Shown: positions 310 to 32,725 of the stretch, piece by piece | Numbering within the stretch: position 1 is the first letter of the stretch | How the letters are laid out: each line of letters begins with the position of its first letter | Source: Armatimonadota bacterium | Lineage (GTDB): Bacteria; Armatimonadota; UBA5829; DTLH01 | Length of the DNA: 64,000 nucleotides | Direction of reading: 5' to 3' | Assembly (NCBI GenBank): GCA_038207085.1 | Contig: JBBRAE010000010.1 | Location: 23,661-87,660, forward strand | Program-made: the position numbers and the translations under genes | Notes under the pieces: model-generated | What the model was told of the DNA's origin: nothing | The model's database searches: none | What the model saw: the letters and a program-made list of their open reading frames with translations, nothing else

Positions 310-1068
310 TTGGATTGCTCCTCTCCTCATAAGCTTGAGCTTTGATGGAAACGATAATTGTGTGCTGATTGGTAGACTCGCTTTAGCTGTCTCTGTCCCA
401 GACCGGCCAGCACGCTTCGGAATGGTTCGTCTCTGTCCGGGTGCCTCAAACCAAGGGGCGCCTCCCCCTGGTCGTTGGACAAAACTTCCTGGACATAGGA
501 AACAGCCGTTCTTCTTTTGCTCTACGCTATAACATCACCCCCTGCGAGCCACAGATTTGACATCGGGTTGCCAGTTTGATAGCAATTGTATTCTCCCGGC
601 CAATGTGGACGATTTTATGTCAGCTCGCCAACCACCGATCGCATTATACTGTCACTATTACGCGTTGTCAACAGCCATTCTTTATAAATCAGGGTTATTC
701 AAGCAAAATCAGGTATTCTTACCAGTATTTGCAGCTTTTACCCTCTTGGAACTATGCCCAAAGTTGATTCAGACTCGGCCGAATCCAACGCTGTGCTGGT
801 ATTACCCAGCAACAATAGGAGGCAAACATAGTGCCGATAAAAAATGCTATTTGTGGGCGAATTCAGGTATTATTACCTGCTTTCTGAGGTGTAATTGGCA
901 TCTATTCGTTGTCACATGGTCCAATATACGACGATTTATGGCGTTTTTTGCTTAAGAGCTTGAATTACAGCCCTCGCCAGCCCCGGACGGGCAGATTCTC
1001 ATATCGACCTCCGTTCTACTCCTTTGTCACATGCAGGTCCGACCCGTCCCCCGACGCACGTGCCTGAT

Positions 1069-29450: not shown

Positions 29451-29651
29451 TCAACCAGAAAATCCGCAGAGTTCGTTCTTCTCGACAGATTCGTCGGTTA
29501 TTCCCTCAAAATGAAGCTGATAAGCGTTCGTCGCGTCGGCGATGGCCTCTTCGTAAGTCTCCCCCTGCCCGACAACCATCGCGTCCCGCCCTTCAGCAAC
29601 CGCAACGCAGCCAGATTCGTCACACTCGATAGTGATCTTGAGTTGAGTCAT
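29451..29651 (-). CDS. Orphan HicB-like antitoxin-fold protein
   Basis: VGQGETYEEAIADATNA motif; ATG at 29651 with a GAGGGG SD. Confidence 0.7.
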   Translation of the reverse strand: MTQLKITIECDESGCVAVAEGRDAMVVGQGETYEEAIADATNAYQLHFEGITDESVEKNELCGFSG

Positions 29652-29858
29652 AGTGTTGTGTTCCCCTCTAGCCAAACAATACTGGTAATAATCACAGCCC
29701 CGAGAATCTTACTCCCCGGGGCTGCGTTTCGTCAAGTCGAACCAAACAGATGCTTTAGTCTAGCCATCTATCTTTGTCACAGATTCACTGCAATCACAAT
29801 CACGACAGGATGCAGGAAAATAATGTGTTAGTTGCGTGCAATAATGGGGAATTACTGA

Positions 29859-29887
29859 TTGACGAATGATATCGCCTGTGATATCAT
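29859..29887 (+). promoter_or_regulatory. sigma70 promoter with an overlapping palindromic operator; leaderless start
   Basis: TTGACG-N17-TATCAT; ATGATATC-N6-GATATCAT inverted repeat; ATG 6 nt after the -10. Confidence 0.75.
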
Positions 29888-29893
29888 CCATAC

Positions 29894-30208
29894 ATGGCTA
29901 AGGCTGAGGAAGTACTTCGAAAATGGAAGAGCTATTGTCCTCCAGAAGTTGACCTTGATGACTTCGAAAAGGTCATACGAGCTTACCTGGGCAATTGGCT
30001 CAGGGAGAAGACAGGCACTTCACATGTGTTCATTGTTGAGCACCCTGCCTTAGCATATGTTCCTGCATTCGGTGGCAACTGCACCTTGGCAGTGTCTTTG
30101 TAGTCCGGTCGAAGAGTCAAGGGCGTATACGTTGATCACATGCTAAAGGCTATTGAATGTATTGAACTATATGAAGACGTAATGAACAACAAAGGAGACC
30201 AGTCATGA
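29894..30208 (+). pseudogene. hicA: HicA-like toxin interrupted by an in-frame TAG (30101-30103)
   Basis: GTSH motif; the frame continues *SGRRVKGVYVDHMLKAIE... to a TGA overlapping the hicB ATG (ATGA). Confidence 0.8.
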
Positions 30209-30756
30209 AGCCCGGTACACTAGATTACTACATGACTCTGGATTACCCTGTAGAGATTCGTGCAATCCCTGATGAGCTAGGTGGCGGATACTCAGCGTCC
30301 ATTCCCTATTTGGGCAGATGGGCATTTTTCGCTGAAGGAGATACAGCGCAGGAAGCACTTGAGGCTCTGCAAGAGCTTAAGGTTACACTCTTTGAAGACA
30401 TGATCAGTAGAGGTAAGACCATTCCTCTGCCGCCACCTATTCCGGAGCAAGAGCTGGAGGAATATAGTGGCCGCATCCTCTTGAGGATACGCAAGGAATT
30501 GCACAAGGATGTTGCCCGCATGGCTGAGAAAGATGGTTGCAGCGTCAACCACTACATATCTGATATTCTCACCCAGCACGTAGGTGGCGCACAAGTAGCG
30601 GAGTTGTTCGCAAATAGAATCGCATCGACCTTTGCCGCCTCGTCGTTGGAGCAAGAACGCTTGAAGGGCAGTTATGAGCTAGACACGCAGGCCAAGCCGT
30701 CACTACAATTACTGTCGCGTCAGTATGATATGCGGACTTTTGATGCAGCTTCTTAG
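30205..30756 (+). CDS. hicB: HicB antitoxin (partial RNase H fold + RHH) with a C-terminal extension
   Basis: GGYSASIPYLG...AEGDTAQEALE; YSGRILLRIRKELH...SVNHYI; about 50 extra residues. Confidence 0.9.
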   Translation: MKPGTLDYYMTLDYPVEIRAIPDELGGGYSASIPYLGRWAFFAEGDTAQEALEALQELKVTLFEDMISRGKTIPLPPPIPEQELEEYSGRILLRIRKELHKDVARMAEKDGCSVNHYISDILTQHVGGAQVAELFANRIASTFAASSLEQERLKGSYELDTQAKPSLQLLSRQYDMRTFDAAS

Positions 30757-30770
30757 CGCGACTTAAGGAT

Positions 30771-31232
30771 TTGATGATGAACCAAACAGAATTCGATGCA
30801 AAACCAGCGATATCACCAGAAGAATACGGCAAGGTAATTCGAGGATTGGAGCTCCGAAGTATCTCCCTTCTGGAATGCGATGTCAAATCGGACCCCGAGA
30901 CTTCGAAGATTGCTTTTGCTGAACTTGGAAAAATACCCGTAGACACTAGTGAAAACGCTAGCTTCGCTGTCATTGACGGGACAGTAAATGTCACACACAG
31001 TTATTTGCTGCAATCCCGGTACAAACGAAAGAATATTCTCGCAGTTAAAGCAAATTACTTGCTGACTTTTGCCAGTAGTGAGGAGTTCAGCCCAGAGTTC
31101 TTTGAGGTTTTTCAGCAAATAGCCCTACCAATGTTTACTTGGCCATATTTTCGAGAGTTCGTAGCATCTATGACAGGGCGTATGGACCTACCAGAACTGC
31201 AATTAGGGCTAAAACACCAGCCTCATTTCTGA
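30771..31232 (+). CDS. SecB-like chaperone
   Basis: 153 aa; C-terminal motif PMFTWPYFREFVASMTGRMDLPELQL. Confidence 0.8.
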   Translation: MMMNQTEFDAKPAISPEEYGKVIRGLELRSISLLECDVKSDPETSKIAFAELGKIPVDTSENASFAVIDGTVNVTHSYLLQSRYKRKNILAVKANYLLTFASSEEFSPEFFEVFQQIALPMFTWPYFREFVASMTGRMDLPELQLGLKHQPHF

Positions 31233-31252
31233 CGACTTTCAAGTATATATCT

Positions 31253-31289
31253 AGCAAGAAGCCCCAGATTACCTCTGGGGCTTCTTGCT
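31253..31289. terminator. Bidirectional terminator
   Basis: AGCAAGAAGCCCCAGA-TTACC-TCTGGGGCTTCTTGCT. Confidence 0.85.
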
Positions 31290-31297
31290 TCTGTGGG

Positions 31298-32725
31298 CTA
31301 GTTCTCTACCGGCAGTCCATTCTTCTCCCGAATATACCTGTCGATACCCTGTGCGGCGACCTTGCCTGCGCCCATCGCGGTGATGACGGTCGCGGCTCCG
31401 GTGACGGCGTCGCCTCCGGCGAAGAGGCCAGGTATGGAAGTCATTCCGGTCTCATCGTTGATGATAATCCCGCCCCACTTCTGCACCTGCAGCCCGTCGG
31501 TGGTGGAGCGAATGAGCGGGTTTGGGCTCTGGCCGATTGCGATGATCGCTGTGTCGAGCTCCATCACAAACTCGCTTCCAGGAACCGGGACCGGGCGGCG
31601 GCGACCCGAGTCGTCGGGCTCACCGAGCTCCATCCTCAGGCACTCCATGCCGATCAATTGGCCCTTTTCGTCGCCGATAAAGCGCGTGGGGTTGGTGAGG
31701 AGCTTAAACTCGACTCCCTCGTGCTCGGCGTTTTCGATCTCCTCTGCGCGAGCGGGCATCTCCGCGCGGCTGCGGCGGTAGACGATCGTCACGTTCTCAG
31801 CTCCCACTCGAAGCGCGGTGCGGGTGCAGTCCATAGCGGTGTTCCCAGCGCCGATGACTGCGACCTTCCTGGGCTTACGAAGCGGAGTCACATACTCGGG
31901 GAACCGATTCGCGCGCATCAGATTAATTCGGGTCAGCCATTCGTTCCCCGAAAGCACGCCGTTCAGGTTCTCACCGGCAAGCTTCATCATCTGAGGAGCG
32001 CCAGCGCCTGAGCCGACGAACACTGCGTCAAACCCCTGCGCAAGCATCTCCTGGATCGTCACGGTCTTGCCGATGACGACGTTTTTCACAATCTTCGCGC
32101 CAAGGCTCTTTACGTAGTCGATCTCCCTGTCCAGGATATCGCGCGGCAGGCGGAACTCGGGGATGCCGTAGCGCAGCACGCCGCCGGTGTGGTGCAGCGC
32201 CTCGAAAATCGTGACCGAGTAGCCCATCTTGGCGAGGTCACCGGCAACCGTAAGCCCGGCTGGGCCGGAACCTACTACCGCTACCGCGTATTTGTTAAGC
32301 GACGGGTCGGCAGGGCCTTCGACAGCGTCGAGTTTGCCCGCTGAGTTCAGCGCCTCGTAATCGGCGACGAACCGCTCGATGCGGCCGATCGCGACCGGCT
32401 CACCGGCTTTGCCAAGCACGCAGAGCTTCTCGCACTGCTCTTCCTGAGGGCAAACGCGCCCGCAGACCGCGGGAAGGCTGTTTGTCTTCTTCAGAGCCGA
32501 CGCGGCCTCCATGAACCTGCCCTCTGCGGCAAGCGTGACGAACTCGGGGATGTCCACCATCACAGGGCAGCCGAGCATGCAGGGCTTTTTCTTGCAGCCG
32601 AGGCAGCGCTTGGCTTCGTTTAGCGCCTGCTCTTCGGTGTATCCGAGCGCCACTTCGTAGAAATTCTTCACGCGCTCAGCGGCAGGCTGCTGAGGCATAT
32701 CTTCGCGCGGTTTTATGTTTGCCAT
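31298..32725 (-). CDS. nfnB: NfnB/SudA-type large subunit (often annotated glutamate synthase gltA)
   Basis: EAKRCLGC...CGRVCPQEEQCE; GSGPAG; GAGNTAMD; GGDAVTGAATV. Confidence 0.9.
   Translation of the reverse strand: MANIKPREDMPQQPAAERVKNFYEVALGYTEEQALNEAKRCLGCKKKPCMLGCPVMVDIPEFVTLAAEGRFMEAASALKKTNSLPAVCGRVCPQEEQCEKLCVLGKAGEPVAIGRIERFVADYEALNSAGKLDAVEGPADPSLNKYAVAVVGSGPAGLTVAGDLAKMGYSVTIFEALHHTGGVLRYGIPEFRLPRDILDREIDYVKSLGAKIVKNVVIGKTVTIQEMLAQGFDAVFVGSGAGAPQMMKLAGENLNGVLSGNEWLTRINLMRANRFPEYVTPLRKPRKVAVIGAGNTAMDCTRTALRVGAENVTIVYRRSRAEMPARAEEIENAEHEGVEFKLLTNPTRFIGDEKGQLIGMECLRMELGEPDDSGRRRPVPVPGSEFVMELDTAIIAIGQSPNPLIRSTTDGLQVQKWGGIIINDETGMTSIPGLFAGGDAVTGAATVITAMGAGKVAAQGIDRYIREKNGLPVEN

Follow-up and report, generated by a model that had tools for sequence, protein, structure and literature searches.

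A three-gene operon in the chromosome of an Armatimonadota bacterium (GCA_038207085.1), lying within the 64,000-nucleotide stretch of contig JBBRAE010000010.1 that was analysed here and is called the window, is probably a horizontally acquired toxin-antitoxin-chaperone module (TAC) belonging to the HicAB type, in which a nonsense mutation has inactivated the toxin. The operon consists of three co-directional open reading frames (ORFs) on the + strand, namely a toxin-like frame, the hicB antitoxin gene and a gene for a SecB-like chaperone. An earlier note, made from the letters of this DNA alone, had proposed a HicAB-type TAC at this place. The proposal holds as far as the order of the genes, the SecB fold of the third protein, the ribbon-helix-helix (RHH) of HicB and comparative data on the HicB tail are concerned; an intact toxin is missing from it, as the toxin frame carries an in-frame TAG.

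The chaperone gene

The protein encoded by the third gene has a SecB fold, and its nearest match is Rv1957, the chaperone of Mycobacterium tuberculosis dedicated to a toxin-antitoxin (TA) pair. Taken alone, its sequence has SecB as the only or top match in Pfam and NCBIfam (E 0.052, below the cut-offs), and its comparison with the PDB gives Rv1957 at E 0.14. An exhaustive HMMER search returned 901 representatives at E<=1e-3, with 248 at <=1e-10. The family alignment of 147 sequences was built from 141 of the 150 listed representatives (nine short ones omitted), to which three copies from loci, P0002 and the protein of the window were added, and 79 of its 147 members match Pfam SecB at <=0.01. 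Searched against the PDB, the profile of this family recovers Rv1957 (5mtw) at 5.7e-8, and the SecB proteins of E. coli and Haemophilus influenzae at ∼8e-4 (7.6e-4) to 1e-3. The same ranking is given by structure: the AlphaFold2 (AF2) model has a mean predicted local distance difference test (pLDDT) score of 93.2, and its best Foldseek match is 5mtw_C (E 1.2e-8, template modelling (TM) scores 0.69/0.75), followed by the SecB proteins of E. coli (1qyn) and H. influenzae. The earlier note had called the third ORF SecB-like and had named the lack of a SecB fold as one of two findings that would overturn its reading; the fold has now been found both by model comparison and by the profile search. 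As to its length, the protein counts 153 residues when read from TTG 30771; likelier starts are offered by the ATGs at 30774 and 30777, and a database copy, P0001, begins at 30777.

The chaperone family is found in 27 of the 401 genomes of the phylum, with one match each, and in four of the 61 nearer genomes; one carrier, G005, belongs to the same family as the genome of the window. The HicB family described below lies directly upstream of the chaperone in 21 of the 27 loci, and the toxin family is found upstream in 18 of the 27 with a first profile or 20 of the 27 with a wider one, which itself included one of the two added sequences. One of the 27 loci begins at a contig end. With a narrower chaperone alignment, four loci were recovered from genome contigs and one weak match of 19 residues (L018) from metagenome contigs.

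The other six chaperone loci (L022, L027, L028, L032, L042 and L045) have different partners. At L022 (G006), an 86-residue ORF is RelE/HigB-like by eye with no Pfam match, and is accompanied by a 133-residue antitoxin whose helix-turn-helix (HTH) matches are all under the Pfam cut-offs. The partners at L027 (G147) and L028 (G249) resemble, by eye, HigB/RelE and an HTH protein. In all three loci the HTH antitoxin carries a C-terminal extension, and the three have the appearance of TACs of the HigBA type within Armatimonadota. The chaperone homologue of L045 (G009) is distant (E 3e-6) and is preceded by an ORF of 244 residues in place of a small antitoxin. Outside the phylum, HicB and the chaperone occur together in an uncultured bacterium (L016) and in a metagenome-assembled genome of Coatesbacteria (L017); HicB is preceded in both by an ORF of ∼130 residues that is unmatched by the toxin profile and may be another type of toxin.

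HicB and its C-terminal tail

The antitoxin is assigned to HicB by Pfam PF05534, which covers residues 86-122 at E 2.8e-10, above the cut-off; PF15919 matches at 8e-4, under its cut-off. The N-terminal domain resembles E. coli HicB in the PDB (6u0i and 6hpb, E 0.004-0.007). The earlier description of a HicB with an RHH and an additional tail ending in ...RTFDAAS is thereby borne out, the tail amounting to ∼60 residues after the RHH.

In related loci, the length and composition of this tail vary with the presence of the chaperone. An alignment search for HicB gave matches in 96 of the 401 genomes, and the best 30 loci were examined, 14 of which duplicate loci already included. The tail was taken as the residues past the end of the RHH, with the truncated HicBs of L041 and L072 excluded. 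In chaperone-linked HicBs (n=20), it measures 28-89 residues with a median of 55 and falls between 48 and 89 residues in 19 of them, the exception being L043, where the chaperone is reduced to a 37-residue remnant. In close homologues lacking the chaperone (n=15), it measures 6-86 residues with a median of 19, and 14 of the 15 have only 6-39 residues; here the exception is L050, with a tail of 86 residues. The median number of aromatic residues in the tail is 5.5 in the linked set versus 0 in the chaperone-less set (fractions of 8.3% versus 2.3%), and a pair of aliphatic residues (AA, VA, AV or LV) closes the tail in 11/20 linked HicBs versus 1/15 chaperone-less ones. The same toxin family lies upstream in 11 of the 15 chaperone-less loci, and the two-gene and three-gene forms therefore appear as versions of one TA pair.

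These comparisons support the idea that the HicB tail acts as a chaperone addiction domain (ChAD), as the earlier note had suggested. What stands of that suggestion is the joint occurrence of a long aromatic tail and the chaperone, while the role of the tail is assigned by comparison with relatives and published systems and is best called putative.

A contig of 246 nucleotides from a microbial-mat metagenome, obtained in a different study, is the same as window positions 30269-30514 within hicB except for G>A at 30453, so that a hicB of nearly the same sequence exists elsewhere.

A divergent HicA-like toxin with an in-frame stop

The toxin frame consists of 69 codons, a TAG and 34 further codons. 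Its product appears to be related only distantly to canonical HicA, and is best placed in a divergent, unannotated HicA-like family rather than filed as a member of the Pfam family. Three intact homologues of 92-105 residues are 56-59% identical to the window toxin, and His44 and Gly72 are invariant in an alignment of 19 sequences of the family. When the toxin profile is compared by hhalign with seven canonical HicAs of the same genome, a probability of 85.9% (E 5.3e-6) is obtained, and the TSH of the toxin stands opposite the GSH of the canonical proteins, whose conserved His in this G-S-H context is presumably catalytic. Pfam HicA_toxin (PF07927) is matched at <=0.1 by two of the 19 family members (best 6e-4), one of which scored 17 bits against a cut-off of 27 bits. 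A further lead comes from the ESM Atlas, in one cluster (score 0.87) with HicA_toxin on 15% of its members. In the AF2 model (pLDDT 85.9), an N-terminal helix precedes the order helix-strand-strand-(short helix)-strand-strand-long helix, with helix 21-35, strands 36-38, 44-49, 64-68 and 74-76, and helix 77-103; the fold of HicA is dsRBD-like, alpha-beta-beta-beta-alpha. The likeness to HicA named in the earlier note is thus carried by the profile comparison, the invariant His and the HicB partner, and not by membership in Pfam or a clear match of fold.

Intact homologues have K, E and K at the position of the TAG, and one substitution in an AAG or GAG codon accounts for the stop. The truncated product lacks the final strand of the toxin model and its long C-terminal helix, and the toxin is most likely dead in this copy. 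The window is not alone in this respect, as the toxin is disrupted in four of the 18 three-gene loci, with the HicB and chaperone frames open in all four (Table 1). The broken toxins of the related loci look like the outcome of ordinary decay.

The possibility that TAG is read as a sense codon was considered and rejected: ARAGORN finds no tRNA with a CUA anticodon among the 43 tRNAs of the genome, and hicB itself terminates in TAG. In the same genome, ARAGORN calls a tRNA-Sec (UCA) at positions 19633-19729 of contig C11, which suggests the use of selenoproteins.

Besides the operon, the genome of the window contains 14 canonical matches to Pfam HicA_toxin, 13 of which are above the cut-off, and two of them have an in-frame stop (TGA on contig C9 and TAG on contig C2). 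This genome therefore holds many HicAB loci, some of which are decaying.

Expected mechanism and alternative explanations

By analogy with characterized TACs, an intact module of this kind would work as follows. The RHH of HicB would bind a palindrome in the promoter and repress the operon, and the N-terminal domain of HicB would neutralize the HicA-like RNase. The aromatic tail of ∼60 residues would make HicB prone to aggregation and proteolysis unless it is held by the SecB-like tetramer. Were the chaperone drawn off by unfolded clients, or by a structural protein of a phage, HicB would be degraded, and the toxin, once released, would cleave RNA and stop growth. In the window, an antitoxin-chaperone pair is left that is probably inert or decaying. 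This copy is unlikely to bring about abortive infection, as the toxin is interrupted. The only match to a defence model at the locus, which is not in a defence island, is the weak one (E 0.0011) of the chaperone to PADLOC PD-T4-9_C, the model of the CmdC chaperone.

Several observations weigh against an inactivated HicAB-type TAC of foreign origin. On the side of the toxin, neither the window fragments nor the read-through form (with X at the stop) has a match in Pfam or NCBIfam, no HicA of the PDB is found with the window toxin by sequence or by profile search, and a Foldseek search of the model against the PDB gives no match at <=1e-3. In the VIA search, which is independent of Foldseek, the HicA chains 1whz, 5yrz_D and 6g26_E reach Z 3.0-3.2 over 57-62 residues, no higher than unrelated entries and within the noise, the best Z for the model being 4.1. 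On the side of the antitoxin, the window tail contains five Phe/Tyr residues and no Trp, and ends in AAS instead of two aliphatic residues; the genomes from which tails were compared are kin, with five linked loci from one genus, so that the counts of long and short tails overstate their independence. The TAG was checked on contigs that probably derive from the genome's own sample, and contigs hide minority alleles. Lastly, the ∼10 kb around the operon contain metabolic and housekeeping neighbours only, with no mobile-element or defence genes among them.

An alternative that leaves the module a working TAC supposes that the TAG is leaky or an artefact, or that toxicity persists in the N-terminal fragment of 69 residues, in which His44 is preserved. 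Past the TAG, 34 codons have indeed stayed open and are conserved in comparison with homologues, the ATGA coupling to hicB has been kept, and HicB and the chaperone are full length. Set against this, the TAG is present in two assemblies, since a separately assembled contig of 3555 nucleotides (depth 14.3) is identical over 29700-31300 with the TAG included. The lack of a suppressor tRNA, the use of TAG as the hicB terminator and the loss of the C-terminal part of the toxin model point the same way, as do the broken toxins in three of the 17 other loci (one TAA, one TAG, one frameshift), which look like ordinary decay. A functional module is thus unlikely.

It is very unlikely that the HicB tail is not a chaperone-addiction element and that the SecB-like protein serves the toxin, in its folding or delivery, or an unrelated client. 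This idea draws on the poor conservation of the tail sequences and on the CmdTAC antitoxin, which also aids toxin folding. It has to contend with the covariation of the long aromatic tail and the chaperone, the toxin family being present with both forms, and with the occurrence of the same chaperone family beside unrelated toxins whose antitoxins are also extended at the C-terminus (L022, L027 and L028). Furthermore, published TACs from three antitoxin families all act through the antitoxin tail.

A more speculative idea makes the TAG a conditional switch, the toxin being produced only upon read-through, for instance with a suppressor tRNA supplied by a stop-codon-recoded phage, in which case the module would be a trap for such phages. 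The open and conserved codons after the TAG, their coupling to hicB and a host devoid of tRNA-CUA would suit this design. The related loci are broken by TAA, frameshift and TAG alike, which fits plain pseudogenization, and the switch is highly improbable. Finally, next to no credence can be given to the third gene being the general export chaperone SecB that merely adjoins a HicAB pair: its product is the sole SecB-like sequence found in the genome, where no canonical SecB above the cut-off occurs, yet its patchy distribution in the phylum sets a housekeeping role aside, its place is almost always immediately behind a TA antitoxin, it sits in a low-GC islet and its profile is nearer to Rv1957 than to E. 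coli SecB.

Organization and surroundings of the operon

The toxin loss and chaperone addiction favoured here concern an operon with a single promoter-like site and a single hairpin, whose features are listed in Table 1. The junction between toxin and hicB is an ATGA overlap at 30205, and a gap of 14-20 nucleotides separates hicB from the chaperone gene. The GC content is 0.44-0.53 over ∼29650-31300 versus 0.55-0.64 in the flanks. On one side lies a Peptidase_M32 gene (E 5e-159), and on the other a GltD/NfnB-like gene (Fer4_20 and Pyr_redox_2), with an NfnA-like gene next to it. These three genes lie on the strand opposite to the operon, the nfnB-like gene being convergent with the chaperone gene. 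The ORF calls, the GC profile and these flanking matches agree with the AT-richer three-gene operon between M32 and nfnB that the earlier note had described. Its left boundary at 29859 has to be given up: the TTG at that position is in another frame and belongs to the -35-like TTGACG, and homology places the toxin start at ATG 29894.

Table 1. Features of the operon and interruptions of the toxin frame in the window and in related loci
Feature	Position	Strand	Remarks
HicA-like toxin gene, probable pseudogene	29894..30208	+	In-frame TAG 30101-30103 (codon 70 of ~104); TGA overlaps hicB ATG
hicB, antitoxin of 183 aa with N-terminal toxin-binding HicB domain and RHH	30205..30756	+	AAGGAG ribosome-binding site 7 nt before ATG
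HicB tail, putative ChAD, residues ~123-183	30571..30753	+	~60 residues after RHH, 5 aromatics, ends ...FDAAS
SecB-like TA chaperone, 151-153 aa	30771..31232	+	AAGGA ribosome-binding site 30762-30766
Sigma-70-like promoter, TTGACG, 17-nt spacer, TATCAT with TG extension	29859..29887	+	10/12 matches; predicted function
Perfect 8-nt palindrome ATGATATC-N6-GATATCAT over spacer and -10	29866..29887	.	Candidate HicB RHH operator
Perfect 16-nt inverted repeat, 5-nt loop, between chaperone stop and convergent nfnB-like stop	31253..31289	.	Likely shared terminator hairpin
Broken toxin, window	30101-30103		TAG
Broken toxin, L026	942-944		TAA where relatives have Q
Broken toxin, L037	768-770		TAG
Broken toxin, L023	about 750-765		Frameshift in G-run, could be an assembly error

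The -10 element ends 6 nucleotides before the toxin ATG, and the mRNA would consequently be leaderless or nearly so. From its sequence and position, we infer that the palindrome over the promoter may be the operator of the HicB RHH. The motif TGATA-N6-12-TATCA occurs once in the window, at this promoter, versus 0.09 expected, and 10 of the 18 related loci have it within the 70 nucleotides before the toxin start (by eye on printed sequences); four other related loci share a different palindrome, CCAC...GTGG. At the other end of the operon, the hairpin was missed by a consensus terminator scan because it has no T-run.

The point of insertion has been sought in relatives. In 11 of them, a stretch of 1.5 kb examined downstream of the orthologue of nfnB shows no similarity to the window. 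M32 is not adjacent to the nfnB orthologue in these 11 relatives, and the boundaries of the insertion therefore cannot be drawn.

Between the M32 gene and the operon, an ORF of 74 residues (29451-29675, - strand) resembles a small stand-alone antitoxin of the HicB/UPF0150 type (Pfam HicB_lk_antitox E 0.027; ESM Atlas clusters with HicB-like names, 0.90). A promoter-like site lies upstream of it at 29735-29706, and no toxin partner is seen adjoining it. Just upstream of this ORF, positions 29690-29729 form an imperfect inverted repeat of 13 nucleotides (85% complementary, 14-nucleotide loop).

Comparison with known systems

The value of the locus lies first in the naming of three genes that would stay 'hypothetical' under standard models, the toxin family being without a Pfam or NCBIfam match and the chaperone of the window under the SecB cut-off. 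It also appears to extend HicAB-type TACs to Armatimonadota. HicA-like/HicB pairs with and without chaperone and tail, which occur even inside one bacterial family, constitute a natural comparison set that could be used for studying the gain and loss of chaperone addiction. No new mechanism is opened by this copy, which is probably non-functional. The novelty of the system had been overrated in the earlier note, as a catalogue of HicAB-type TACs dates from 2013 and the validation of one of them from 2016 (PMC3581621, PMC5105189).

HigA, MqsA and HicB are the canonical antitoxin families tied to SecB-like chaperones according to Sala et al. 2013, who found the RHH in all SecB-linked HicBs (PMC3581621). 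The HicAB-type TAC of Methylomonas methanica has been shown by Bordes et al. 2016 to be functional and chaperone-dependent in E. coli, and ChADs can be grafted onto other antitoxins (PMC5105189). This system, Mmet-TAC of M. methanica MC09, is the closest in organization to that of the window: the order is the same, toxin-HicB-SecB-like protein, and HicB has an RHH and a C-terminal extension in both (PMC3581621, PMC5105189). The likeness is one of published description, and the two systems belong to different phyla, Pseudomonadota for Mmet-TAC and Armatimonadota here. They also differ in the toxin, which in the window is outside Pfam HicA_toxin, has an N-terminal helix and an insert, and is interrupted by a stop.

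For the chaperone, the best structural and profile match is provided by the M. tuberculosis HigB1-HigA1-SecB-TA system (Rv1955-1957, 5mtw; Guillet et al. 2019, PMC6377645). In HigA1, the site that binds the chaperone and a C-terminal ClpX degron, a Val-Ala located within the ChAD, are both part of the tail (PMC6377645), and the aromatic, AA- or VA-ended tails of the HicB family described here parallel this arrangement. The M. tuberculosis pair is however of the HigBA type, with a RelE-fold toxin and an HTH antitoxin, and the window chaperone is only 16-18% identical to its counterpart in the structural alignment.

Anti-phage roles have been demonstrated for CmdTAC, HigBAC and MqsRAC of E. coli, in which the ChAD and the capsid or tail proteins of phages contend for the chaperone (PMC9519451; Mets 2024 preprint; Vassallo 2024, PMC11618068); PD-T4-9, whose third gene encodes a SecB-like chaperone, is CmdTAC (Vassallo 2022, PMC9519451). 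The SecB-like third gene is common to these systems and to the window, whose chaperone matches CmdC weakly. Recognition of the antitoxin tail relies on aromatic residues, Y114 in M. tuberculosis HigA1 and W128, F158, F188 and Y214 in E. coli HigA. The E. coli systems differ by their toxins and by a proven defence against phages, whereas the locus of the window has housekeeping neighbours, a broken toxin and nothing that ties it to phages.

Canonical two-gene HicAB systems, such as those of E. coli (6hpb) and Burkholderia pseudomallei (6g26), share with the window the N-terminal domain of HicB, which matches 6hpb and 6u0i, and the GSH-type His of the toxin. Close two-gene versions of the present HicA-like/HicB family exist in sister genomes. 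Compared with the canonical pairs, the operon of the window adds a chaperone gene and a HicB tail of ∼60 residues to a toxin that is longer (∼100 residues) and divergent.

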